64,000 nucleotides of DNA from an uncultured candidate division Zixibacteria bacterium. Lineage in GTDB: Bacteria; Zixibacteria; MSB-5A5; SM1-73. This document shows positions 15,218 to 53,742 of the stretch, piece by piece. The first letter of the stretch is position 1. The number at the start of each line of letters is the position of its first letter. A program made the translations under genes and the position numbers. The DNA is taken from positions 25,052 through 89,051 of the forward strand of contig CAIVRH010000023.1 in assembly GCA_903908285.1 (NCBI GenBank), in the 5' to 3' direction. The notes beneath the pieces are model-generated. The model did no database searches and was not told where the DNA came from. It saw only the letters and a list, made by a program, of their open reading frames with translations.

Positions 15218-16531
15218 TTATTCTCTGCTCCTCACCTCTCCCCCTACGATGGTGCAGAAAACCTTACCACGAAGTCTTTTCTTGCCAAAGGGTGAATTCT
15301 TTGACTTCGATTGAAACTTGGTCGGATCCACCACCCACAGAGTTTTGGGATGGATGATGGTGATATCTGCCGGGAAGTTTTTCTTAATCCTTCCCCCATT
15401 CAGATTCAATATTTTAGCGGGATTTATGGTCAGCTTAGCTATGGCTTGTGACCAGGAAAGAATCTTTTTCTCGATTAATTCGGTAACCACCAAGCCCAAA
15501 GCGGTCTCCAAACCCACCATTCCGCAAGGGGCAAAATCGAACTCCACGTCTTTTTCCTCAATCGAATGAGGGGCATGGTCGGTGGCGATGCAATCGATGG
15601 TCCCGTCCGCCAAGCCTTTTTTTATCGCTTCCACATCTTTCTTCGATCTTAGCGGCGGGTTGACTTTGGCATTGGTGTCGAATGTCCTTATTATCTCGTG
15701 GGTCAACGAGAAATGGTGGGGAGTGGCTTCGCAGGTGACTTTTATACCTCTCTTTTTAGCCTGACGGATAAGCTCCACCGAACCCTCGGTGGAAACGTGG
15801 GCGATATGAAGGTGGGCTTTGGTAAATTCAGCCAGTTTAATATCCCGCGCCACCATGATTTCTTCAGCCACCGAAGGTATGCCGCTCATCCCCAGACTGG
15901 TAGATACAAAACCCTCATGCATAACTCCGCTGCCGGAAAGATTCAAATCCTCACAGTGAGAGATCACCGGCAGATCAAACATCCGGCAATATTCCAAAGC
16001 GTTTCTCATCACTTGCGGATCGGAGACCGGTTTTCCGTCATCCGAGATCGCCACCACCCCGGCCTGGACCAAATCGTAAATCTCGGTGAGCTCCTCGCCC
16101 ATCTGATTTTTGGTGATACAACCGATCGGATACACTTTGCATTTTGCCTGTTTTGCTTTCTCGTAGACAAACTTTACGGTTTCCTGATTATCGATAGGGG
16201 GATGGGTGTTAGGCATACAGCAGACCGAGGTGAATCCTCCAGCTACGGCTGCACAGGAACCGGTATATATGGTTTCCTCGTCCTCTCTTCCCGGCTCCCT
16301 CAGGTGGGTATGCATGTCTATCAGACCGGGAACCACTATCATTTCCTTGGCATCGATGGTCTCTTTCGCCCCAAGCTTGCTTTTAGGCTTCTCGATTCTC
16401 TTAATCACTCCATCCCGGATGAAAATATCCGCGATCCGGTCGGTTTTGCTTTCCGGGTCGATCACTCTGCCACCTACGATGGCCAGATCGAATTCCGAAA
16501 CCACTCCTTTTTCCTTCTCGTAGTTATTCAA
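15218..16531 (-). CDS. pyrC: dihydroorotase
   Basis: PGLIDMHTHLREPG, metal-ligand His/Asp pattern, ~430 aa. Confidence 0.9.
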   Translation of the reverse strand: MNNYEKEKGVVSEFDLAIVGGRVIDPESKTDRIADIFIRDGVIKRIEKPKSKLGAKETIDAKEMIVVPGLIDMHTHLREPGREDEETIYTGSCAAVAGGFTSVCCMPNTHPPIDNQETVKFVYEKAKQAKCKVYPIGCITKNQMGEELTEIYDLVQAGVVAISDDGKPVSDPQVMRNALEYCRMFDLPVISHCEDLNLSGSGVMHEGFVSTSLGMSGIPSVAEEIMVARDIKLAEFTKAHLHIAHVSTEGSVELIRQAKKRGIKVTCEATPHHFSLTHEIIRTFDTNAKVNPPLRSKKDVEAIKKGLADGTIDCIATDHAPHSIEEKDVEFDFAPCGMVGLETALGLVVTELIEKKILSWSQAIAKLTINPAKILNLNGGRIKKNFPADITIIHPKTLWVVDPTKFQSKSKNSPFGKKRLRGKVFCTIVGGEVRSRE

Positions 16532-17456
16532 CTTTTCCTTCTCCTCCGCTTAAAAGATATAAAACCGCCATTCTCACCGCTACTCCGTTGGTTACCTGGT
16601 CCAAGATCACCGAGTGAGGACCGTCCGCCACTTCCGGGGTGATCTCCACCCCTCTATTTATAGGTCCCGGATGCATGATGGTGAAATTCTGATTCAACCG
16701 ATTTAGTCTATCCCGGGTTATTCCAAATTTGTTGGAATACTCCCTGAGTGAAGGCAAAAGACTGCCCCTTTGTCTTTCTAACTGAATCCTTAGAACATTG
16801 ACCACGTCCGCCCCTTCTAAAGCTTGGTCCAGATCGGAATATGCTTTCACCCCCATCTTTTCGATCTCCAGTGGGAGCATGGTGGTGGGACCGCATACCG
16901 AAACATCCGCTCCCAAGGCAGTGAATCCCCAGATATCCGATCTTGCCACCCGGCTGTGTTTTATGTCCCCCACGATCACGACTTTTAAGCCTTTGATCCT
17001 TTTGTACTTTTCTCTGACAGTGAAAACGTCCAGCAATCCCTGGGTGGGATGTTCATGGGCTCCATCTCCGGCATTGATGATGGATGCCTTCATACACTGA
17101 GTAAGAAAATAGGGGACTCCAGAGGCTTGATGCCTAACCACCACCATATCGATCTTCATAGCTTCGATATTTCTAACCGTGTCCTTCAACGTCTCCCCTT
17201 TTTTGACGCTGGAGGTCGAAGCGGAGAAGTTCACCACCTCGGCGGAAAGACGTTTCTCTGCCAGCTCAAAGGAGATGCGGGTGCGGGTGGAAGCCTCGTA
17301 GAACAAGTTCACCACCCCCACCCCTCTCAAGGTGGGAACGATTCGGATGGGGCGTGCCAGAATCTCCTTTAAAGTTTCCGCGGTATCCAGAATCAAGGTT
17401 ATCTCATCTTTACTCATCCCCTCCAAGGCGAGGAGATGTCTGCTACGTAATTTCAT
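16524..17456 (-). CDS. pyrB: aspartate carbamoyltransferase catalytic subunit
   Basis: STRTR and HPTQ(G)LLD motifs. GGAGGT RBS before the ATG at 17456. Confidence 0.9.
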   Translation of the reverse strand: MKLRSRHLLALEGMSKDEITLILDTAETLKEILARPIRIVPTLRGVGVVNLFYEASTRTRISFELAEKRLSAEVVNFSASTSSVKKGETLKDTVRNIEAMKIDMVVVRHQASGVPYFLTQCMKASIINAGDGAHEHPTQGLLDVFTVREKYKRIKGLKVVIVGDIKHSRVARSDIWGFTALGADVSVCGPTTMLPLEIEKMGVKAYSDLDQALEGADVVNVLRIQLERQRGSLLPSLREYSNKFGITRDRLNRLNQNFTIMHPGPINRGVEITPEVADGPHSVILDQVTNGVAVRMAVLYLLSGGEGKVE

Positions 17457-17474
17457 CACACCTCCGAAAATACC

Positions 17475-17501
17475 GGTTCGTAGTTCGTGGTTCGTGGTTG
17501 G
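17475..17501. repeat. (GTTCRTRG)n octamer repeat tract in the pyrR-pyrB spacer
   Basis: ggttcgtagttcgtggttcgtggttgg. Related tracts at 55909-55999 and 59683-59707. Confidence 0.6.
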
Positions 17502-17646
17502 AAGTCTCTACTTTACGGTTCACGCTTGAATTTCTTCATGGAATTTAGCGCTTTTCTATCCATATCATTCTTCATCCGTCATTCTTTATTCTTCATTCGA
17601 TATTAGCTTTATTTTATTTCTTCTTTTTCCATTTTCTCTTGACTCT

Positions 17647-18192
17647 TCACTGCTTTATGATGGACACACTGTCCTCCTTGTCCACCTCGGTTATCTTCAC
17701 ATTCACCCGGTCATCCTTGGCGGTGGGAATGTTTTTCCCCACATAATCTGCGCGGATGGGAAGCTCGCGATGTCCCCGGTCGACTAAAACCGCCAGCTGG
17801 ATGTTTTTCGGTCGACCGAAATCGATTATCTGGTCCAAAGCTGCCCGGATGGTCCTGCCGGTGAACAAGACATCGTCCACCAGGACTATCACTTTATCCA
17901 CCACATCGAATAAGACCTCGGTTTTTTGAACCACAGGCTGTTCCAGTTTGGTCTGGATGTCATCCCGGTACAAGGTTATGTCCATCAGCCCGACGGGGAT
18001 TTTTACTTTTTCGATTTGTTCAATCAGCTTGGCGATTCGCTCGGCCAAGTATGCTCCCCGGGTTTTGATTCCAATGACTGCCAGATTTTCCGCGCCCTTG
18101 TTTTTTTCCACCATCTCATGGGCCACGCGAATCAATGCTCTTTCCACCGCTTTGGCATCCATGACCAATACGATTTTCTGTTTCTTAGGCAA
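17647..18192 (-). CDS. pyrR: bifunctional pyrimidine operon regulatory protein / uracil phosphoribosyltransferase
   Basis: PRTase motif [17 protein letters not shown], ~180 aa, located upstream of pyrB-pyrC. Confidence 0.85.
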
Positions 18193-18321
18193 TTGGCTCC
18201 TCCTTGTGATTTCTCTAATCCCCCTAAATCCCCCTTTAACAAAGGGGGATTAAAATCTTCCTTTTTACCTGAGACGGGATATATCATTGTGCCAACTTTT
18301 GACAACCAAATCCACAGATAA

Positions 18322-18358
18322 AAAAATACCCTTCCTCGGTTTTTCTGAGGAAGGGTAG
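18322..18358 (-). terminator. rho-independent terminator ending the 22585->18461 minus-strand operon
   Basis: aaaaaaataCCCTTCCTCggtttttctGAGGAAGGGtag: 9-bp GC-rich stem, with a T-run on the minus transcript. Confidence 0.65.
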
Positions 18359-18460
18359 TTATTTCAATTCGTATTATTTTCATTTTACCTTTTCTAGCTT
18401 CGCCGAACTAGATTAAAAGGCTCTTCGGTTGTACCTAATCTATTCAAGGATTCTTTCTTG

Positions 18461-40377: not shown

Positions 40378-40472
40378 AAGATTCGGGGAGGCAATGACGG
40401 GATTCGGTTATGTTGGGCAAGTTAAACAAAATAAATTGCAAATCTATTATTTTGATGTATATTTAATTTGAC

Positions 40473-40569
40473 GGAAGTGGATAGGATCTGGTGGTCCTTG
40501 CGGACTTCAAATCCGTCGTCCCTCCGGTTCTCCGGGGGGAGGTGGGTTCGATTCCCACCCCTTCCGCCA
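40473..40569 (+). tRNA. selC: tRNA-Sec (selC), anticodon UCA
   Basis: Hand-folded: acceptor GGAAGUG(G), 6-bp D-stem AGGAUC/GGUCCU with 4-nt loop (the Sec hallmark), anticodon stem GCGGA/UCCGU with loop CUUCAAA (UCA), long extra arm CCCUCCGGuucuCCGGGGGAGG, T-arm GUGGGuucgauuCCCAC, CCA encoded; 97 nt. Confidence 0.8.
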
Positions 40570-40651
40570 AAATATTTGTATGTTTCACTAATAGTTGAGT
40601 GGGGTAACAGAAAATTAGGTAAACCAATCCTTTCTCGGAAAGGAGAGAAGG

Positions 40652-40864
40652 ATGACTACGCGAACTTTCGCCGCAGTTCTGCACAAAGAAGAAGACATGT
40701 ATGTAGCGGAATGCCCGGAAGTAGGAACGGTAAGCCAGGGTCATACCGTCGAGGAAGCGATAGCCAACCTCAAAGAGGCGACGGAACTTTACTTAGAGGA
40801 ATTTCCACAAACCAAGATTGGAAAGCCAATACTTACCACGTTCGAGGTGGTAGGAAATGCGTGA
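40652..40864 (+). CDS. hicB: HicB-family antitoxin (UPF0150, short form)
   Basis: 70 aa ending ...TTFEVVGNA, similar to HicB/UPF0150 N-terminal domain proteins. Stop overlaps the hicA start. Confidence 0.6.
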   Translation: MTTRTFAAVLHKEEDMYVAECPEVGTVSQGHTVEEAIANLKEATELYLEEFPQTKIGKPILTTFEVVGNA

Positions 40865-41085
40865 GTTAAGAAAAATATCCGGGGAAGAAGCCATCAAAAT
40901 TCTGCAAAAACTCGGGTTTCAATTGGCAAGACAGCGGGGCAGTCATGTGGTTTAAAAAAAGCTGGCAAAAGAAGGAGAGGTCGGTTGTGTGGTTCCTCTT
41001 CATCGCGAGTTAAAAATCGGTACACTCAAAGGAATTCTTAAACAAGCAAAAATCACCTCAGAGGAATTCACAAGTCATCTCTAGG
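40857..41085 (+). pseudogene. hicA: hicA toxin gene interrupted by a frameshift in an A7 homopolymer
   Basis: Frame 1 reads MRELRKISGEEAIKILQKLGFQLARQRGSHVV* (stop 40953-55). The -1 frame continues KKLAKEGEVGCVVPLHRELKIGTLKGILKQAKITSEEFTSHL*. Joined, this gives a canonical HicA (GSH...VPxH...GTLxxILKQA). The shift lies in the run aaaaaaa at 40954-40960. Confidence 0.65.
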
Positions 41086-41163
41086 CTGAATCAAGAGCTT
41101 TGGGTATACATGGAAATTTAGTTTTCTGCGACAAGTAATATGGATTCAAAAGAAAAAATCAGA

Positions 41164-42189
41164 ATGACCAGCTTGGCCACCAGCTCGGGGTGAGCGGCGA
41201 AATGCGGTCCTGCGGACCTGGCTCAGGTGCTGAGCCATCTGCCCAAGCAAAATGATCCCAACGTGTTGGTGGGTTTCAATTCGGTGGACGATGCCGGAGT
41301 TTACAAAATCAGGGAGGATTTAGCCATAGTCCACACGGTGGATTTTTTTCCGCCCATTGTGGATGATCCTTACGATTTTGGCGCTATCTCAGCGGCTAAT
41401 TCCTTGAGTGACATCTATGCCATGGGAGGAAAGCCGATAACCGCTCTGAATATCGTGGGCTATCCTCCTCAAAGCGTGCCTCTATGGGCTTTGGAGGAGA
41501 TGCTCAAGGGGGGAGCGGAAAAAGCAATGGAAGCGGAAGTGTCCATAATCGGCGGTCATACTATCAGAACCAAAGAACCCATCTATGGGTTGGCAGTGGT
41601 GGGGACGATCCACCCGGATAGGATAATCAGCAATGCCGGTGCGAAAGCTGGTGATTCGCTGGTTTTGACCAAACCCATTGGTACGGGGATCATAACTACG
41701 GCCATAAAAAGGAATCTGGTTGAAGATGATATAGTGAAAAAAGTGGTGAAGATAATGGCTTTTTTGAATAGATACGCGTCTGAATCAATGCTGGATGTTG
41801 GAGCTAATGCTTGTACGGACATAACCGGTTTCGGTCTTCTGGGGCATCTATGCGAACTTTTACAAGCTTCTAAAGTAGGAGCAAAAATCCATCTTTCGAA
41901 TGTGCCGATAATCGAGCCCGCTTACCAGCTGGCACATGATAAAATTATTCCCGGCGGCACCTTGAGCAATCTGGAATTTATTGCCGAAAAGACCGACTGG
42001 AGTAAAGAAATTTCGGAAGAAGAGAAACTGATACTCTCCGATGCCCAGACTTCCGGGGGATTGCTCATCTCGTTACCAAAAGAAAAAGAAAAAAAGCTTT
42101 TGCAAATTCTGGCTGCCAAAGGGGTGTCCGGTGCAGTCATCGGTGAAATAATTGAGGACAAGAGATGCCGAATCCAAGTGGAAAATTAG
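41164..42189 (+). CDS. selD: selenide, water dikinase (selenophosphate synthetase) with in-frame UGA selenocysteine at codon 10
   Basis: ATG at 41164 is in frame with the track ORF (41227..42189). N-terminus MTSLATSSG-U(TGA 41191-93)-AAKCGPADLAQVLSH aligns with the SelD GxG(C/U)GCK...P..L..VL active-site loop. Hairpins GGUCCugcGGACC (41206-18) and GGCUCAGgugCUGAGCC (41219-35) lie 12-42 nt downstream, as expected for a bacterial SECIS. The rest is AIR-synthase-like. Confidence 0.75.
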
Positions 42190-43568
42190 TCAAAGAGAAA
42201 TTAAGACAGATACCCAGCGTGGAGAAAGTCCTGGAATCTTCCGAACTCCAAGCGGACATAGACAAATTCTCTCATACCCTGGTGGTATCCGCGATAAGGG
42301 AAGCCATAAAGACGACAAAGAGTGAAATAGCCAAAAGCAAAGAGACGGTTTCTCTTGACTCAATAATCGGGAAAACCAAGGATGTTCTCCGCGACCTGAC
42401 TTCATCTGCTCTACAGCCGGTGATCAATGTCACCGGAGTCATTCTTCATACCAACCTGGGCCGGGCACCCTTAGACGAGGGCGCTCTATCTTTTATTAAA
42501 GAAGTATGCGCCAATTATAACAACCTGGAGTTTGATCTAAGGGAAGGTAAAAGGAGCAAACGAGGGGTTTTTGTGGAAAAACTGCTTTGCCTTCTAACTT
42601 TATCCGAAGCCGCTTTGGTAGTCAATAATAATGCTGGCGCTGTGCTTTTGATCCTGACCGCTATGGCGAAAGAAAAAGAGGTGATTGTCTCCAGGGGGGA
42701 GTTAGTGCAGATCGGCGGGGGTTTTCGGATTCCGGAGATTCTCTCTTTAAGCGGAGCAACTCTAAAAGAAGTGGGAACCACAAATCATACCACCATCTCC
42801 GATTACGCCAGAGCCATAACCCGCCGGACCGCTCTTTTGCTCAAAGTTCACCAGAGCAATTTCAAAATGATCGGTTTTACGGAAAAGCCATGCATCCACG
42901 ATTTGGTTAAATTGGGGAAGAAGCATAAGCTGCCGGTAGTCGAGGATATGGGAAGCGGGGTTCTTCTCCGCACCGAGGATTTTCATTTGGCGCATGAACC
43001 TACCATGACGGAAGCCCTGTCCGCCGGTGCGGATTTGATCTGTTTTTCCGGAGACAAGCTTTTGGGTGCTCCGCAAGCGGGGATAATTTTGGGAAAAAGA
43101 AAATACATAGATATTCTTAAAAAACACCCCTTATATCGGGCTTTGAGATTAGACAAGATGTTCCTGGCGGGATTAGAAAGAATCCTGCTTTACTATCTAA
43201 AAGGCGAAGCCGCAAAGAAAATTCCGGTCTGGCAGATGATCGGTACTCCTGGGGAAGTTTTACAAGCCAGGGCGGAGAAAATAAAGGATAAGCTTAAAGA
43301 ATCGGGTATTGAAATTGTCATTAAGAGGAGTAACAGTACTATCGGTGGAGGATCGCTTCCCGGTGAGAGTTTGTCCACAGTTATACTATCCGTTGACAAA
43401 CCCTTTATCCCGGCTAATCAACAAGCCCAGCTTTTCAGAGAACAATCTTTGCCCATCATCGGACGGATAGAGGATCAGAAATTCGGGTTGGATTTAAGAA
43501 CCGTTTTTCCTCACCAGGATGAATTATTAATCTCCGCCATTAAAAACATTTTCCTTAAGAGAAGCTGA
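42165..43568 (+). CDS. selA: L-seryl-tRNA(Sec) selenium transferase (selenocysteine synthase)
   Basis: LRQIPSVEKVL N-terminus and INVTGVILHTNLGRAPL typical of SelA, PLP-fold, 467 aa, overlaps selD. Confidence 0.85.
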   Translation: MPNPSGKLVKEKLRQIPSVEKVLESSELQADIDKFSHTLVVSAIREAIKTTKSEIAKSKETVSLDSIIGKTKDVLRDLTSSALQPVINVTGVILHTNLGRAPLDEGALSFIKEVCANYNNLEFDLREGKRSKRGVFVEKLLCLLTLSEAALVVNNNAGAVLLILTAMAKEKEVIVSRGELVQIGGGFRIPEILSLSGATLKEVGTTNHTTISDYARAITRRTALLLKVHQSNFKMIGFTEKPCIHDLVKLGKKHKLPVVEDMGSGVLLRTEDFHLAHEPTMTEALSAGADLICFSGDKLLGAPQAGIILGKRKYIDILKKHPLYRALRLDKMFLAGLERILLYYLKGEAAKKIPVWQMIGTPGEVLQARAEKIKDKLKESGIEIVIKRSNSTIGGGSLPGESLSTVILSVDKPFIPANQQAQLFREQSLPIIGRIEDQKFGLDLRTVFPHQDELLISAIKNIFLKRS

Positions 43569-48622: not shown

Positions 48623-51028
48623 ATGACAAATAAAAAAGAACTGTCAGAACGAGATATTTGCACGCAATTCATCTTACCCGCTCTCATAAAGTCCGGGTGG
48701 GATGTCACAAAACAAATCCGCGAAGAGGTTTTTTTCACTGACGGGCGTATTTTTGTCAAAGGCAATAACACCGCACGTGGAGAGAGAAAACGTGCTGATT
48801 TTATTCTCTATCTAAAACCGAATATTCCTATCGCTGTAATTGAAGCAAAAGATAATAATCATTCCGTGGGGGCTGGGTTGCAGCAGGCATTAGGTTATGC
48901 GAAGCTTCTCGATGTCCCGGTTGCCTTTAGTTCAAATGGGGATGGTTTTATTCAGCATGATCTTTCTGGATTCTCTGCGGATATTGAAATAGAAATATCT
49001 TTAGACAATTTCCCTTCTCCATCCGAGCTGTGGAATATGTACAAGAAATATAAAAAGATTGAAACCCCTGAGCAGGAAAAGATCGCCTCCTATGAATACT
49101 TTTTTGATGGCTCAGGACGTGCGCCTCGTTACTATCAGCAGATAGCCATAAATAGAACGGTTGAAGCAATAGCACGTGGTGAGAACAGAGTTCTACTGGT
49201 AATGGCTACCGGCACGGGAAAAACCTATACCGCTTTTCAGATAATATATCGGCTATGGAAAAATGGAAGGAAGAAGCGGATTCTTTTTTTAGCAGATCGC
49301 AATGTGCTTATCGATCAAACCAAGCGAAATGACTTTAAACATTTTAAAGACCGTATGACGGTCATCAAAAAGAAAAAGATCGACAAGGCGTTTGAAATTT
49401 ACCTTGCCCTTTATCAGGGGTTAACGAATTACAATGAAGACAAAGATGCCTATAGAGAATTCAGCCGGGATTTCTTTGATCTTGTGGTTGTAGATGAGTG
49501 CCATCGTGGAAGCGCAGATGCTGATAGTGCTTGGAGAGCGATATTGGAGTATTTTAGCTCTGCTACTCAGATCGGGCTTACGGCAACTCCACGGGAAACA
49601 AAAGAAATTTCCAATATTGAATATTTCGGCGAGCCAATTTATACCTACACGCTTAAGCAAGGCATAGAGGACGGATTTTTGGCTCCCTATAAAGTTATAC
49701 GGGTTGGACTCAGTACCGACCTTGAAGGCTGGCGTCCCGAAGCAGGTAAAAAAGATCAGGATGGCAACGAGGTTGAAGATCGGGTTTACAACATTAAAGA
49801 TTTTGACAAGAACCTTGTGATTGATGAGCGGACAAAAATTGTTGCCAAGAAGGTGTCGGAGTATTTGAGGAAGACTAACCGTTTTGACAAAACGATAGTC
49901 TTTTGTGTGGATATTGAGCACGCCGAGCGCATGAAACAGGCGTTGGCGAATGAGAACCCGGATTTGGCGTTGGAAAACTACAAGTATATTATGCGAATAA
50001 CCGGTGATGATGAAGAAGGTAAGCGCGAAGTGGATAATTTCATAAATCCTGAAGAGCGTTATCCCGTCATCGCAACCACTTCAAAATTAATGACGACTGG
50101 CGTCGATGCGCAGACCTGCAAATTGATCGCACTTGATTCAAATATCAAATCGATGACTGAGTTTAAACAAATTATAGGCCGCGGAACTCGCATTAACGAA
50201 GACTATGACAAAACCTTTTTCGCCATCATGGATTTTCGTAATGTGACCGATCTTTTTGCTGATCCGGCTTTTGATGGCAACCCGGTTATGATCAAAGAGG
50301 TCAAAGGAGAAGAGGAGCTAACCGACCAAGATATTAATCCGGAAGGAGATCAGGAAATCATCGATCCGGAAACCGGTAAGCCTGTTGATTTTGAGAAGAA
50401 AGAAACAAAAGAATATCCGACTCAGCCGGAAATTATCCAGGGCGGTTCAATAGTATCCGAGCCTCGTTCAAAGGTTTATGTGGCAGGTGTAGATGTTTCG
50501 GTTCTAAACGAGCGGGTTCAGCATCTGGATGCGAACGGAAAACTCATTACAGAGAGCCTAAAAGATTACACAAAAAGGAGTATCTTGCAGGAGTTTCGCT
50601 CCCTTGATGATTTCCTTGCCAAGTGGAATAGCACTTATAAAAAGAAAGCCGTTATCGAGGAACTAGAATCGCACGGCATAATTTTTGAAAATCTTATGGC
50701 TGAAGTAAAGAAGGATTTAGATGTCTTTGACCTTATCTGCCATATTGCCTGGGATATGCCCGCGCTTACTCGCAGGGAGAGAGCAGAGAAGGTTAAAAAG
50801 CGCAATTACTTTACTAAATATGGTGAAAAAGCGCGCATCGTCATAGATGCTCTGTTGGATAAATATGCCAGCGAAGGTATTGAGAATATTGAGGATTTAT
50901 CGGTTTTAAGAATTTCCCCGTTTGATCAGATAGGCACTCCGACAGAAATCTTGCAGATTTTTGGAGGCAAAAAAGAATATTTACACGTTATTGAAAAATT
51001 AGAAAACGAACTATACGCGGCGGCATAA
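48623..51028 (+). CDS. hsdR: type I restriction enzyme R (endonuclease/helicase) subunit
   Basis: N-terminal HsdR nuclease domain (ILPALIKSGWD...ADFILY...IEAKD), DEAD-box helicase motifs (VMATGTGKTYTAFQI, VVDECHRG), 801 aa. Confidence 0.85.
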   Translation: MTNKKELSERDICTQFILPALIKSGWDVTKQIREEVFFTDGRIFVKGNNTARGERKRADFILYLKPNIPIAVIEAKDNNHSVGAGLQQALGYAKLLDVPVAFSSNGDGFIQHDLSGFSADIEIEISLDNFPSPSELWNMYKKYKKIETPEQEKIASYEYFFDGSGRAPRYYQQIAINRTVEAIARGENRVLLVMATGTGKTYTAFQIIYRLWKNGRKKRILFLADRNVLIDQTKRNDFKHFKDRMTVIKKKKIDKAFEIYLALYQGLTNYNEDKDAYREFSRDFFDLVVVDECHRGSADADSAWRAILEYFSSATQIGLTATPRETKEISNIEYFGEPIYTYTLKQGIEDGFLAPYKVIRVGLSTDLEGWRPEAGKKDQDGNEVEDRVYNIKDFDKNLVIDERTKIVAKKVSEYLRKTNRFDKTIVFCVDIEHAERMKQALANENPDLALENYKYIMRITGDDEEGKREVDNFINPEERYPVIATTSKLMTTGVDAQTCKLIALDSNIKSMTEFKQIIGRGTRINEDYDKTFFAIMDFRNVTDLFADPAFDGNPVMIKEVKGEEELTDQDINPEGDQEIIDPETGKPVDFEKKETKEYPTQPEIIQGGSIVSEPRSKVYVAGVDVSVLNERVQHLDANGKLITESLKDYTKRSILQEFRSLDDFLAKWNSTYKKKAVIEELESHGIIFENLMAEVKKDLDVFDLICHIAWDMPALTRRERAEKVKKRNYFTKYGEKARIVIDALLDKYASEGIENIEDLSVLRISPFDQIGTPTEILQIFGGKKEYLHVIEKLENELYAAA

Positions 51029-51031
51029 AAA

Positions 51032-52459
51032 ATGAAAAACATTGGTAATATTATCAAGACATTACAAAACATTATGCGCAAAGACCCCGGTGTTTCCGGT
51101 GATGCTCAGCGGATTGAACAACTAGGCTGGATGATTAGTCTCAAAATTTTGGACGATAGCGACAAACAGCAGAAGTTGATAAACGACAACTACATATCCC
51201 CTATACCAAAATATCTACAGTGGCGGAGCTGGGCGGGTGATGATGAAGGTATGACCGGAGAAGATCTTAAAGAATTTGTTGACGGCACGTTAATACCAAA
51301 GCTTAAAAATCTTGATGTGAGTTCTGGTAATAAACGCGCACTCATTATTCGTGAAATATTTGATGGCACGAACAACTATATGAAGAACGGTACCATCCTT
51401 CGCCAAGTCATAAACCAGCTCAACCAGATTGATTTCAACAGTTCCGAGGATCGTCACGTTTTTGGAGATATCTACGAAACGATTCTGAAAGACCTGCAGA
51501 GTGCCGGGAATTATGGAGAGTTTTACACTCCTCGCGCACTTACTGAGTTTATGACGGAAATGATTAACCCGCGACTGGGCGAAAAAGTATTAGACCCGGC
51601 ATGCGGTACAGGAGGATTCTTAACCAGCGCAATTGAGAACATCCGCAAGCAGGATGTTAAGGGTGTAAAGGACCTCAAAGAGCTTGAGAAGACCATCCAC
51701 GGGATGGAATTTAAGCCTCTGCCCTTTATGCTAAGCGTTACGAACCTTATTCTGCACGATATCGAAGTCCCTAATATTGATTATATAGACAGCTTAAATC
51801 GCGAATATACCTCAATTGGGCATAAGGATCGGGTTGATGTAATTCTTGCTAATCCACCGTTTGGTGCGTCTGTTACGGATGGTGCTGAAACAAATTTCCC
51901 TCAGAATTTCCGCACCACAGAAAGCGCCGATCTTTTCCTGATGCTGATGATTCGGTATTTGAGAGACGGTGGGCGTGCCGGGATTGTTCTTCCGGACGGT
52001 TCGCTTATGGGCGACGGCGTAAAACAGCGCATCCGCCAGCATTTATTGGAGAATTGCAATTTGCACACTATTGTCCGCTTACCGAATTCGGTTTTTCAGC
52101 CCTATGCCAGTGTTGCCACCAATTTGCTTTTCTTTGAGAAAGGTAAACCTACTAAAGAGATCTGGTATTGGGAGCATAAACTTCCTGAAGGAATGAAAGC
52201 ATACAGTAAAACGAAGCTCATTCAGAAAAATGAATTTGACGGACTTAAAAAGTGGTGGAAGAAGCGCAAAGAGAATAAGCAGGCGTGGAAGGTCTCGATT
52301 AAAACGATAGCGGAAAATGGATATAGCCTTGACATCAAGAATCCGCACACACCTGAAGAAGAACAATCTTATTCGAGCTCTGAGATTGTCTCCATGCTTC
52401 ACGATTCATTCCGCAAAAGTGACGAGCTTCTGGACAAGCTAAAGAAGGAGCTTAGTTAA
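51032..52459 (+). CDS. hsdM: type I restriction-modification N6-adenine DNA methyltransferase subunit
   Basis: HsdM N-terminal domain, SAM-binding LDPACGTGGFL, catalytic NPPFG. Confidence 0.9.
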   Translation: MKNIGNIIKTLQNIMRKDPGVSGDAQRIEQLGWMISLKILDDSDKQQKLINDNYISPIPKYLQWRSWAGDDEGMTGEDLKEFVDGTLIPKLKNLDVSSGNKRALIIREIFDGTNNYMKNGTILRQVINQLNQIDFNSSEDRHVFGDIYETILKDLQSAGNYGEFYTPRALTEFMTEMINPRLGEKVLDPACGTGGFLTSAIENIRKQDVKGVKDLKELEKTIHGMEFKPLPFMLSVTNLILHDIEVPNIDYIDSLNREYTSIGHKDRVDVILANPPFGASVTDGAETNFPQNFRTTESADLFLMLMIRYLRDGGRAGIVLPDGSLMGDGVKQRIRQHLLENCNLHTIVRLPNSVFQPYASVATNLLFFEKGKPTKEIWYWEHKLPEGMKAYSKTKLIQKNEFDGLKKWWKKRKENKQAWKVSIKTIAENGYSLDIKNPHTPEEEQSYSSSEIVSMLHDSFRKSDELLDKLKKELS

Positions 52460-53742
52460 TGGCTGAATGGAAGACAATCGATGAGCTTTTCGATTACGGA
52501 AAAGGGACTTTGCAAAGTTCAAAGTGCTCGCCCGGCAAATACACCTTTATTACTGCCGCTGAAGAGTGGAAGACTCATGAAATATTCACGCACGACTGTG
52601 AGGCTTTAATATTTGCCATGGCGGCCTCTGGTTCGCTGGGCAGGACGCACTATGTGAATGGGAAGTTTATCTCCAGCGACCTTTGTTTCATCCTTACCCC
52701 CAAGAAGGGATTGCGACTCGACCTGACCTTCTACTATCGTCTCTTCAACTTCCTGCGGGCTGATATAGTCAAAAAGACTGCGACAGGCACTTCAAAGCTG
52801 GCGATTAACCAGACAAATTTTGGAGCGTACAGACTTCCTTATTTTGAGTACGAGCACCAGCTAAGTTTTAGGGGCAAGATAGAGACCATAACAGGCATTA
52901 ATGAAGCGTTTTCTAAGGGGATGGACTATCAGTTATCCCTTCTTGCTAAACTTCGTCAGGCCATGTTGCAGGAAGCTATTGAAGGTAAGCTCACAGCCAA
53001 ATGGCAAAAGTATAATCCGGAATTGATCAGCGGTGAAAATCACGCCTCAAAGCTCCTTGAGAGAATCCGAGCTGAGAAAGACAGCCTCCTCAAGGAAGTC
53101 AAGGTACGTAAAGAGAAACCTCTTTCTCCCATCACTGATGACGAAAAACCCTTTATCCTACCCGAGGGATGGGCGTGGTGTCGGTTGGGGGAAATTGGAA
53201 GCACTAATATAGGGTTGACTTATTCGCCCAATGACATATCTGATTCTGGTATTCCTGTGCTCCGCTCCAATAATATCCAAAATGGAACTATTGATTTAAA
53301 TAATCTTGTCAGAGTAAAAATGGAAATTAACGGAAGCCAATATATTAGAAAAGGAGATATCTTAATTTGCGCCAGAAATGGCAGTAAAGCATTGGTTGGG
53401 AAAGCAGCTCAGATTAAAAACATATCTGAATCGATGGCTTTTGGTGCATTCATGGCAATTTTTAGGAGTAGGTATAATGGTTACATCGAAATATTTTTAC
53501 AGTCGCCTATTTTTAGAAGACTGCTAGATAAAGTTAATACAATGACTATTAATCAATTAACTCAAAGTAATCTAAAAAATACAATTATTCCGTTTCCGCC
53601 ATCTGATGAGCAACAAGCCATTGTTGAATGGGTAGATAAACTGAAGGCTGTGATCGACGAAATGGAAAAACAAGTCACCAAGCGCAAATACCAGTCCGAA
53701 ATGCTGATGCAGTCGGTCTTACGAGAGGCATTTGCGGGGTAA
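52459..53742 (+). CDS. hsdS: type I restriction-modification specificity subunit (two TRDs)
   Basis: Two target-recognition domains separated by the conserved coiled-coil spacer (LSLLAKLRQAMLQEAIEGKL...). C-terminal conserved repeat ...MLMQSVLREAF. ATGA overlap with hsdM. Confidence 0.85.
   Translation: MAEWKTIDELFDYGKGTLQSSKCSPGKYTFITAAEEWKTHEIFTHDCEALIFAMAASGSLGRTHYVNGKFISSDLCFILTPKKGLRLDLTFYYRLFNFLRADIVKKTATGTSKLAINQTNFGAYRLPYFEYEHQLSFRGKIETITGINEAFSKGMDYQLSLLAKLRQAMLQEAIEGKLTAKWQKYNPELISGENHASKLLERIRAEKDSLLKEVKVRKEKPLSPITDDEKPFILPEGWAWCRLGEIGSTNIGLTYSPNDISDSGIPVLRSNNIQNGTIDLNNLVRVKMEINGSQYIRKGDILICARNGSKALVGKAAQIKNISESMAFGAFMAIFRSRYNGYIEIFLQSPIFRRLLDKVNTMTINQLTQSNLKNTIIPFPPSDEQQAIVEWVDKLKAVIDEMEKQVTKRKYQSEMLMQSVLREAFAG

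Follow-up and report, generated by a model that had tools for sequence, protein, structure and literature searches.

The selD gene in the 64-kb stretch of Zixibacteria DNA analysed here (the window) very probably encodes a 349-residue selenophosphate synthetase that is read from ATG 41140, has selenocysteine (Sec) at residue 18, specified by an in-frame UGA, and uses the second of two hairpins 3′ of that UGA (hairpin 2) as its SECIS element. The UGA at 41191–41193 almost certainly encodes the catalytic Sec, as judged from alignments, codon conservation and RNA covariation.

Reading frame and start codon of selD

TGA 41191–41193 was the sole interruption of the selD frame, which was open from 41122 and ran on through the ORF called from GTG 41227 to a TAG at 42187–42189. 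The frame had been described as open back to ATG 41164 apart from this one TGA; that was correct, but it extended further, to a TAG at 41119–41121 that bounded it upstream. The features of the reading frame were as follows.

41140–42189, + strand: selD, predicted full-length CDS, selenide, water dikinase, 349 aa including Sec18 (TIGR00476, NF002098 and PDB matches; conservation from the ATG)
41140–41142, + strand: most likely selD start codon, ATG (Met in 8/8 distinct close relatives)
41164–41166, + strand: internal Met9 codon, ATG, the start proposed earlier (Leu in 6/8 distinct close relatives)
41227–41229, + strand: GTG mis-called as the selD start; it encodes Val30 and forms the putative SECIS apical loop (a 320-aa ORF is listed from here; loop columns 37–39)

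The contigs encoding eight distinct close relatives were retrieved individually, apart from the broad scans described below. Conservation set in precisely at the ATG corresponding to 41140; all 60 columns 5′ of it were variable, and several relatives had an in-frame stop one to three codons upstream of it. Within the 17 codons before the TGA, variation was commonest at third positions, 12 of which varied, compared with 8 first and 6 second ones. ATG 41164 was rejected as the start because the codon there was Leu (TTA, CTG or TTG) in six of these relatives (L164, L165, L167, L169, L171 and L172). The conserved start was ATG 41140, so the Sec would be residue 18 and not residue 10, as had been predicted from a start at 41164.

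If the UGA were a real stop, SelD would be a 320-residue protein starting at GTG 41227, and the upstream frame would be untranslated or would yield a 17-residue peptide. This is what gene callers report here and, in similar form, for all listed close homologues (at least 120, called at 283–324 aa or 81–92% of the query), and an N-terminally truncated Aquifex aeolicus SelD does fold well enough to crystallise (2ZAU). We nevertheless consider a real stop very unlikely: the 17 upstream codons were conserved as protein, starting precisely at the ATG, homologues carried Cys exactly at the TGA position, and the shortened SelD would be deprived of the Gly-rich loop with its Sec/Cys and Lys (alignments; trypanosomatid SEPHS2 paper). 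The GTG itself was the Val codon in a conserved Q-V-L motif and made up the loop of a hairpin that covaries, which upheld the earlier suspicion that the GTG start was a mis-call. Orthologues kept the N-terminal loop and started upstream of the GTG. Since the in-frame UGA would encode the catalytic Sec, the annotated selD appears to be cut short at its start, and the close homologues, from the lengths at which they were called, therefore share the truncation of the window model.

The SelD family and its catalytic loop

The long form of the protein matched TIGR00476 (selD) with 377.5 bits (cutoff 125) from residue 8 onward and NF002098 with 351.4 bits (cutoff 299); PF00586 and PF02769 were assigned, in precomputed annotation, to an identical 320-aa protein (P0001). 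Its best PDB match was A. aeolicus SelD (2YYE/2ZOD, E = 1.3e-73), aligned from the N-terminal loop onward, and E. coli SelD (3U0O, E = 7e-70) was aligned from residue 3. Two codons of the loop are of particular importance.

41191–41193, + strand: UGA predicted to specify Sec18 within the N-terminal catalytic loop (aligns with E. coli SelD Cys17 and the A. aeolicus loop Cys)
41200–41202, + strand: codon of Lys21, the catalytic Lys conserved in loops of the form G-(U/C)-x-x-K (counterpart of the K in E. coli GCGCK and Aquifex GCAAK)

Read through the UGA, the loop was S-S-G-U-A-A-K, compared with H-G-A-G-C-G-C-K in E. coli and S-S-G-C-A-A-K in Aquifex. The A. aeolicus match ran column for column across the loop (SSGCAAK-GP-DL), with the UGA placed on the Cys, and the Gly-rich loop with a Sec/Cys and a Lys three residues on was present only when the TGA was read through. 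The original prediction had aligned this region with the SelD active-site loop, which was confirmed, in the form G-U-G-C-K, which was not; the loop is of the Aquifex type, G-U-A-A-K. Alignment to solved SelD structures settles both the fold and the loop.

The A. aeolicus enzyme belongs to the same AIRS/AIRS_C fold family as the window SelD and shares with it the loop SSG-(U/C)-AAK-x-GP-x-DL, its phylum being different from that of the window organism. It contains Sec natively and was crystallised as a Cys mutant. E. coli SelD is of the same enzyme family, and its Cys17 and Lys20 correspond to the UGA and to Lys21 of the window, but it has a catalytic Cys and a second Cys (GCGCK) where the window has U-A-A-K; unlike the window gene, E. 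coli selD is of the Cys type and needs no recoding.

Sec and Cys codons among homologues

Genome and metagenome contigs were scanned broadly for relatives (at most 56% identity among the matches listed). At 148 distinct loci among the matches listed, the codon homologous to the UGA was TGA in 83, TGC or TGT in 65 and any other codon in none. An (R/K)LT....G motif 5′ of this codon was conserved across the TGA, and alignment columns 10–11 (the AA of AAR) showed no variation in either the TGA-type or the Cys-type alignment. The TGA was kept in all eight distinct close relatives (70–93% identity, independent assemblies), and the 320 aa downstream, 70–93% identical in these relatives, formed an intact and conserved reading frame. 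Sec/Cys pairing and protein conservation on both sides of the UGA were therefore both found. The proposal that selD is itself a selenoprotein gained support from the position of the UGA on the catalytic Cys, the restriction of homologues to TGA or Cys codons, and the conserved upstream peptide.

A TGA is one base away from TGC or TGT, and Cys-type SelD is common (65 of the 148 distinct loci among the matches listed), so a Cys codon altered by a sequencing or assembly error, or by recent inactivation of the gene (a pseudogene), might be thought to account for the interruption. Either is extremely improbable. Sequencing error was rejected because the TGA occurred at 83 independent loci; it was also present in an identical contig from a different sample and in the eight close relatives, the downstream frame was intact, and the TGA was accompanied by a hairpin specific to TGA-type genes.

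Sec machinery and genomic context

Genes for two components of Sec synthesis flanked selD.

40472–40568, + strand: tRNA-Sec gene (selC), anticodon UCA (ARAGORN; Rfam RF01852, 67.7 bits, gathering score 47)
42165–43568, + strand: selA, L-seryl-tRNA(Sec) selenium transferase (TIGR00474, 561.8 bits, cutoff 267.9)

The selA gene overlapped the end of selD by 25 nt. The order selD-selA was conserved in most close relatives, and a tRNA-Sec gene lay upstream of selD in five of the eight distinct ones. No SelB-family match was obtained among the 20 largest ORFs of the window; this is weak counter-evidence because the window covers no more than 64 kb of a genome.

Some lineages of uncultured bacteria have reassigned UGA, and the codon could in principle be read as Trp, Gly or Cys by a genome-wide reassignment or by near-cognate read-through. 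This is hardly credible here: the UGA lay at the catalytic Sec/Cys site, with dedicated tRNA-Sec and selA genes adjoining selD. Genome-wide reassignment was rejected, TGA being an ordinary stop elsewhere in the window, where it ended 10 of the 34 large ORFs, including selA, cmk and an M49 peptidase gene.

Among 33 TGAs that split a frame in the window (six frames, frames of at least 150 codons), only that of selD was followed by a hairpin of bacterial SECIS (bSECIS) grade, and the scan of the window yielded no further selenoprotein genes. In HicA, the Pfam match (residues 9–65) spans the stop codon. The literature found on selenoproteins in Zixibacteria held passing mentions only.

Identification of the probable SECIS hairpin

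Two abutting hairpins lay 3′ of the UGA.

41206–41218, + strand: hairpin 1, GGUCC-UGC-GGACC, probable structured spacer (folding, codon bias)
41219–41237, + strand: hairpin 2, the putative SECIS proper, 8-bp stem UGGCUCAG/CUGAGCCA, apical loop GUG (energy, bSECIS criteria, covariation)

Hairpin 2 had the core GGCUCAG-GUG-CUGAGCC (41220–41236) and an eighth pair, U41219-A41237; its uninterrupted 8-bp helix began 25 nt 3′ of the UGA, and its folding energy was -12.4 kcal/mol (z = -3.45). The bSECIS criteria (PMC13188914) were a loop of 3–9 nt, a stem of 4–16 bp, a G in loop position 1 or 2, a distance of 16–37 nt from the UGA and an MFE of at most -7.5 kcal/mol. Hairpin 2, with a 3-nt loop, 8 bp, a spacing of 33 nt and the energy given above, was the sole hairpin in the window to pass all of them; 33 nt comes close to the longest spacing that the published range allows. 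Two stem-loops had been predicted 12–42 nt after the UGA. Both exist, and only the second qualifies as a SECIS, the first falling short in energy.

The hairpin 2 stem was fully paired (7/7) in 45 of the 83 TGA-type genes and in 0 of the 65 Cys-type genes, and pairing amounted to 75.7% in the former versus 40.4% in the latter. The covariation score in TGA-type genes was 0.231, compared with a mean of 0.157 after shuffling, and was reached in 0 of 500 shuffles; with slid pairing partners as a control it was 0.07–0.13, and Cys-type genes, with their own shuffles as the control, were at chance level. Compensatory changes in the TGA-type genes were seen at pair 31–45 (GC 39, AU 19) and at pair 33–43 (GC 35, UA 9, CG 8). 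The codons facing each other in the stem were reverse complements (GCU/AGC, GCG/CGC, GCA/UGC, ACG/CGU, ACC/GGU and UCU/AGA), and the comparative data make it plain that the peptide sequence is constrained by the SECIS hairpin through them. The loop was GUN in all 50 sequences of the class carrying hairpin 2 (H2 class), a conservation that is partly a protein constraint, as GUN is also a Val codon. The bacterial SECIS here is very probably hairpin 2, its covariation being specific to TGA-type genes.

Searching 41100–41320 against Rfam at gathering and permissive E-value thresholds gave no SECIS family, only noise from eukaryotic lncRNA and snoRNA models; this is explained by the fact that no bacterial SelD SECIS family is curated.

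The E. coli fdhF SECIS, like hairpin 2, is part of the coding region, shortly 3′ of the UGA, and has a G-U in a small apical loop on a GC-rich upper stem. The hairpin 2 core CAG-GUN-CUG resembles the fdhF sequence GCAGGUCUGC. Hairpin 2 has no counterpart of the bulged U of fdhF, and 33 nt separate its apical loop from the UGA, a longer spacing than the roughly 20 nt of fdhF. The SelB-binding hairpin of fdhF reportedly begins about 11 nt after the UGA, a start that hairpin 2 does not share; where fdhF has a lower stem, the window has a 5-bp hairpin in the spacer.

Hairpin 1 and the tandem arrangement

Hairpin 1 occupied the position 12 nt 3′ of the UGA. Alone it folded at -7.2 kcal/mol, just missing the limit of -7.5, with a 5-bp stem and the loop UGC; folded jointly, hairpins 1 and 2 reached -19.6 kcal/mol (z = -3.4), and 0 of 200 shuffles folded as well.

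Hairpin 1 might itself be the SelB-binding SECIS, hairpin 2 being incidental or accessory. Its loop lies 17 nt from the UGA, within 16–37 nt and near the E. coli geometry, with a G at loop position 2 and a 5-bp stem; an extended version is the only qualifying hairpin, at a spacing of 16–20, in Nitrospirota-like and Dehalococcoidia-like Sec-type SelD; and codon choice maintains its pairing in TGA-type genes. The codons that form it were GGT in 28 and GAC in 30 of 30 TGA-type genes, compared with 6 and 5 of 16 Cys-type genes, a comparison in which phylogeny is a confounder, most Cys-type GPxDL genes coming from Bacillota. We ranked this assignment as unlikely on energy, loop and missing covariation: the loop UGC is without the usual G[G/U] and was not conserved among H2 carriers (UAA in L001, AAA in L003), no compensatory changes were found in the window's own group, and many H2 carriers had no hairpin 1 in this register, while hairpin 2 had a strong TGA-type-specific covariation and an invariant GU loop.

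Hairpin 2 thus being retained as the SECIS, hairpin 1 may be a conserved structured spacer, at most accessory, that completes a tandem two-hairpin element. Other lineages carrying hairpin 2 had the same spacer with a different hairpin in it; the spacer stems were GGUCC/GGACC in the window and CUCGGC/GCCGAG or GUCGGC/GCCGAC elsewhere. The spacer folded at -5 kcal/mol or below in 90% of H2-class genes versus 38% of Cys-type genes, so that carriers of this distal SECIS nearly always kept a folded spacer hairpin. For two lineage groups RNAalifold predicted a tandem of hairpins that abut each other, and in the second group the spacer hairpin had compensatory changes.

Discussion

Few bacterial selenoproteins are as widespread as SelD, which has its Sec in the N-terminal loop (PMC1794560; PMC13188914). 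Among prokaryotic selenoprotein families, Sec-containing SelD ranks second in how widely it occurs, and it has been known for decades; the window gene is therefore a further member of a known family, and its presence is expected biology. As in the window, bacterial Sec-SelD genes (Haemophilus influenzae, Deltaproteobacteria, Clostridia; Zhang et al. 2006, PMC1794560; PMC13188914) have the UGA in the N-terminal loop and a SECIS immediately 3′, often stand beside further sel genes and are as a rule called too short by gene-prediction programs. The comparisons made here also agree with Inoue et al. (2024, Metallomics Research 4:reg26), who reportedly describe SelD SECIS elements as varying from lineage to lineage and as broken up in genes of the Cys type.

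We propose that translation starts at ATG 41140 and that the ribosome inserts Sec as residue 18 at UGA 41191–41193 rather than terminating. SelB would bind hairpin 2, whose apical loop begins 33 nt 3′ of the UGA, and hairpin 1, abutting the SECIS hairpin, would most likely act as a folded spacer, holding the SECIS close to the ribosomal mRNA entrance although the linear distance is long. The product would be a 349-residue selenophosphate synthetase whose flexible N-terminal loop, S-S-G-U-A-A-K, carries a catalytic Sec and Lys as in A. aeolicus. That selenium is incorporated at the UGA is what we infer from these sequence comparisons. The upstream tRNA-Sec gene and the downstream selA complete a selC-selD-selA cluster, and production of SelD would be self-reinforcing because SelD makes the selenium donor for its own synthesis.

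It is possible, though we hold it only tentatively, that the SelD SECIS of the window belongs to a distinct class found across phyla, with two abutting hairpins, the first a required spacer and the second the SelB-binding hairpin, whose loop is always GUN, 33 nt from the UGA. If this is true, the spacer hairpin would have no SelB-type loop and would have lineage-specific sequences and registers; about 13 nt would be looped out, bringing the distal hairpin to an E. coli-like distance from the ribosome; and the RNA would dictate a protein segment x-Q-V-L-x′ in which the codons of x and x′ are reverse complements. Should the spacer hairpin prove functional and previously undescribed, the consensus on which bacterial SECIS predictors rely could be made more precise.

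Public models of the window SelD and of at least 120 close relatives are short, at about 301–324 residues, and are without the catalytic loop. With the corrected model, 41140–42189 with Sec18, the protein would be interpreted as an active selenoenzyme and no longer as a crippled one, and the organism would be marked as using selenocysteine and as having its selC, selD and selA genes in one compact cluster.

Reading frame, start codon and catalytic loop of selD

The frame of the open reading frame called from GTG 41227 to TAG 42187–42189 was open upstream to TAG 41119–41121 except for one TGA (41191–41193), in agreement with the original prediction, which had started selD at ATG 41164 with Sec at codon 10. 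An earlier in-frame ATG was present at 41140. In eight distinct close relatives, nucleotide conservation began exactly at the ATG equivalent to 41140; all 60 columns of the 60 nt 5′ of it were variable and contained in-frame stops. Over the 17 codons from this ATG to the TGA, 12 third, 8 first and 6 second positions varied. Since the codon equivalent to ATG 41164 was Leu in 6 of the 8 relatives and conservation ran from 41140, translation is predicted to start at 41140, with Sec as residue 18 and not 10. The N-terminus common to the close relatives was M-x-x-K-E-K-I-(K/R)-(L/M)-T-S-L-A-(T/S)-S-(S/F)-G-U-A-(A/S)-K-C-G-P.

The read-through product of 349 residues matched TIGR00476 (377.5 bits, cut-off 125) and NF002098 (351 bits, cut-off 299). 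Its best solved relatives were SelD of Aquifex aeolicus (2YYE/2ZOD, E = 1e-73) and of E. coli (3U0O, E = 7e-70), and both structure alignments started within the N-terminal extension. The TGA aligned with the Cys of the Aquifex loop (LVRSSGCAAKVGPGDL versus LATSSG*AAKCGPADL in the window) and with Cys17 of E. coli SelD (GAGCGCK), and the Lys after it with the catalytic Lys of solved SelD. The loop was of the Aquifex type, U-A-A-K, and not G-x-G-(C/U)-G-C-K as first proposed. In selenophosphate synthetases a Gly-rich N-terminal loop bears the catalytic Cys/Sec and Lys (PMC13188914), so a protein starting at 41227 would be without its active-site loop.

Sec/Cys pairing across homologues

Among the matches listed, 173 homologous loci were collected, both on genome or metagenome contigs and on the contigs that encode close homologues. 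In 148 distinct sequences, the codon at the position of the window TGA was TGA in 83 (TGA-type), TGC in 41 and TGT in 24 (Cys-type), and no other; a (R/K)-L-T-x5-G motif 5′ of it was kept in both types. Such Sec/Cys pairing is the standard selenoprotein signature. The TGA was kept in all eight distinct close relatives (70–93% protein identity, independent assemblies, one named candidate division Zixibacteria), most of which had the selD-selA operon of the window. With the TGA on the catalytic Cys, 83 TGA against 65 TGC or TGT codons, and coding sequence conserved across the TGA, the proposal that selD is itself a selenoprotein was supported.

A true stop at the TGA with initiation at GTG 41227, as in the ORF track, is contradicted by the conserved coding sequence upstream, by the Sec/Cys pairing and by the loss of the catalytic loop that it would entail. 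This GTG is the apical loop of a hairpin (H2, below), and the ORF track had indeed mis-called selD. Truncation was not confined to the window: all 120 protein homologues listed (P0001–P0120, 68–100% identity), including an entry identical to the window ORF, were recorded at 283–324 residues and covered 81–92% of the full-length query. For this clade, public gene calls systematically lose the N-terminus at the Sec codon, and gene-caller truncation of Sec-containing selD genes is routine.

Sec machinery and neighbouring genes

Two genes of the Sec machinery flanked selD:

40472–40568, tRNA-Sec gene, ~600 nt upstream of selD (ARAGORN; Rfam, 67.7 bits)
overlapping the end of selD, selA (TIGR00474, 562 bits)

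tRNA-Sec lay upstream of selD in 5 of the 8 distinct relatives. No match to selB was found among the 20 largest ORFs of the 64-kb window, a small part of the genome. TGA was an ordinary stop in 10 of 34 large ORFs of the window, selA included, so the genetic code is standard; reassignment of UGA is contradicted by these stops and by the presence of tRNA-Sec.

The interval between tRNA-Sec and selD (40570–41139) contained two genes. The first (40652–40864) encodes a HicB-like antitoxin, with a Pfam HicB_lk_antitox match (E = 9e-5) short of the gathering score. The second (40857–41084) encodes a HicA toxin; its match covers the full length of Pfam HicA_toxin (65 bits) and spans an in-frame TAA (40953–40955), and the toxin was probably inactivated by nonsense mutation. 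In L162, L164, L165, L166, L169 and L172 (loci of close relatives) this interval varied from ~190 to 1100 nt, with differing small ORFs (HicB-like, DUF2283, unknown), which suggests a small hot spot for insertions beside the tRNA-Sec gene.

Elsewhere in the window, a PyrR-binding-site match (18320–18424, minus strand; Rfam 55.8 bits, gathering score 54) lay just upstream of a minus-strand ORF run (15218–18192) including dihydroorotase (15218–16531); the run is presumably a pyr operon controlled by attenuation. A type I restriction-modification system (48623–53742, plus strand) comprised hsdR of the EcoAI family (1165 bits) and, 3′ of it, genes for a methyltransferase that weakly resembles hsdM/MAD2 and for a specificity subunit.

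Hairpin 2 as the probable SECIS element

The published bSECIS consensus has an apical loop of 3–9 nt, a stem of 4–16 bp, a G within the first two loop positions (usually G then G or U), a UGA-to-loop distance of 16–37 nt and an MFE of -7.5 kcal/mol or lower (PMC13188914). Two hairpins followed the UGA:

41206–41218, H1, GGUCC-UGC-GGACC, 5 bp, loop UGC, spacing 17 nt, -7.2 kcal/mol
41219–41237, H2, 8 bp, loop GUG, spacing 33 nt, -12.4 kcal/mol

H2, with core GGCUCAG-GUG-CUGAGCC (41220–41236) and an eighth pair U41219-A41237, agreed with the consensus on every point. H1 fell outside it, its energy being too weak and its loop without the usual G[G/U]. Both predicted hairpins were present, and the SECIS assignment stood for H2 and not for H1. 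Co-folded, they reached -19.6 kcal/mol (z = -3.4; 0/200 shuffles as stable). As a chance control, the window was scanned in six frames for TGAs that interrupt a frame of 150 codons or more and have a hairpin of the bSECIS consensus 3′ of them; of 33 such frame-splitting TGAs, only that of selD had such a hairpin.

Counted in alignment columns from the U of UGA, H2 (columns 30–36 with 40–46) was fully paired in 45/83 TGA-type and 0/65 Cys-type sequences, its loop being G-U-N in every case. By pair counting, 75.7% of its cells were paired in TGA-type genes, against 40.4% in the Cys-type control, the same as shuffles. Pair 31–45 was GC in 39, AU in 19 and GU in 5 TGA-type genes, and pair 33–43 was GC in 35, with UA, CG and AU in 9, 8 and 2, respectively. 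Covariation scored 0.231 (shuffled mean 0.157, reached by 0/500; slid partners 0.07–0.13). Within the window's clade the stem changed from GGCUCAG/CUGAGCC to GACCCAG/CUGGGUC, with L164 and L165 as single-mismatch intermediates. A sequencing error or pseudogene at the TGA is contradicted by 83 independent TGA loci and by the SECIS that accompanies the TGA.

Codons 11 and 15 after the Sec codon were mutual reverse complements, as were codons 12 and 14 (CAG/CUG), and the pairs around Q-V-L were GCU/AGC, GCG/CGC, GCA/UGC, ACG/CGU, ACC/GGU and UCU/AGA. Because the stem codons are reverse-complementary, the peptide changes in step, and residue pairs covaried across lineages (A/S, A/R, A/C, T/R, T/G and S/R). 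The RNA structure of the SECIS constrains, even dictates, SelD protein sequence here.

Hairpin 1 and the tandem arrangement

No compensatory changes in H1 were found in the window's group, where the stem was invariant, which counts neither for nor against H1. In TGA-type genes with G-P-x-D-L, the codons forming H1 were Gly GGT in 28/30, Asp GAC in 30/30 and Leu CTN in 29/30, compared with 6/16, 5/16 and 7/16 in Cys-type genes, a comparison confounded by phylogeny. Of 50 genes carrying H2, 90% had a 26-nt UGA-H2 spacer that folded with an energy of -5 kcal/mol or less (mean z = -1.48), versus 38% of Cys-type (z = -0.19) and 48% of other TGA-type genes. Codon bias and spacer folding suggest that H1 is not an accident.

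The spacer hairpin adjoined H2 and was built differently by lineage: GGUCC/GGACC (columns 16–28) in the window, (AG)CUCGGC/GCCGAG(CU) (columns 11–29) in one other group and GUCGGC/GCCGAC (columns 13–27) in another. These alternative spacer hairpins, of 6–8 bp, occurred in other phyla with H2 (L087, L115, L116, L126, L132–L140, L144, L158, L080, L104, L117, L119 and L142; first 47 nt after the TGA). RNAalifold independently predicted a pair of abutting hairpins for each of the two lineage groups given, and the second group had compensatory changes in the spacer hairpin (pair 13–27, CG 14/GC 5; 12–28, AU 5/GC 5; 18–22, CG 14/AU 2). Spacer-hairpin loops had no conserved G. H1 has a low probability of being the SelB site. 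H2 would be the SelB-binding element, and H1 may serve as a folded spacer offsetting the long linear UGA-H2 distance.

Sec-type lineages without H2 had extended H1-like hairpins of 8–10 bp at spacing 16–20 (in L005, L010, L089, L093 and L154 with loop GGU/GGC/GGG at spacing 20) or, in L006, L011, L025, L061 and L098, a hairpin at spacing 27; SECIS position is therefore not conserved across the SelD family. No contiguous-stem hairpin within the criteria was found in 17/83 TGA-type sequences. SelD SECIS elements are reportedly variable (Inoue et al. 2024), and the lineages without H2 agree with this.

Comparison with known systems

Like E. coli fdhF, the window's selD had a coding-region hairpin with a G-U apical loop, but H2 was without the bulged U, its loop lay at a distance of 33 nt from the UGA, and the spacer was filled by a hairpin of its own. 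FdhA and SelD have the widest distribution among bacterial selenoproteins (Zhang et al. 2006, PMC1794560), and earlier prediction work did not count SelD as machinery "because it can be a selenoprotein itself" (PMC1242214).

SelD of the window is very probably a selenoprotein starting at 41140, with Sec18 in a U-A-A-K loop and H2 as its SECIS. As Sec-containing SelD and its truncation by gene callers are well known, this is a correct re-annotation of a familiar type. Only the conserved architecture of two tandem hairpins in this class of distal SECIS may exceed textbook knowledge.
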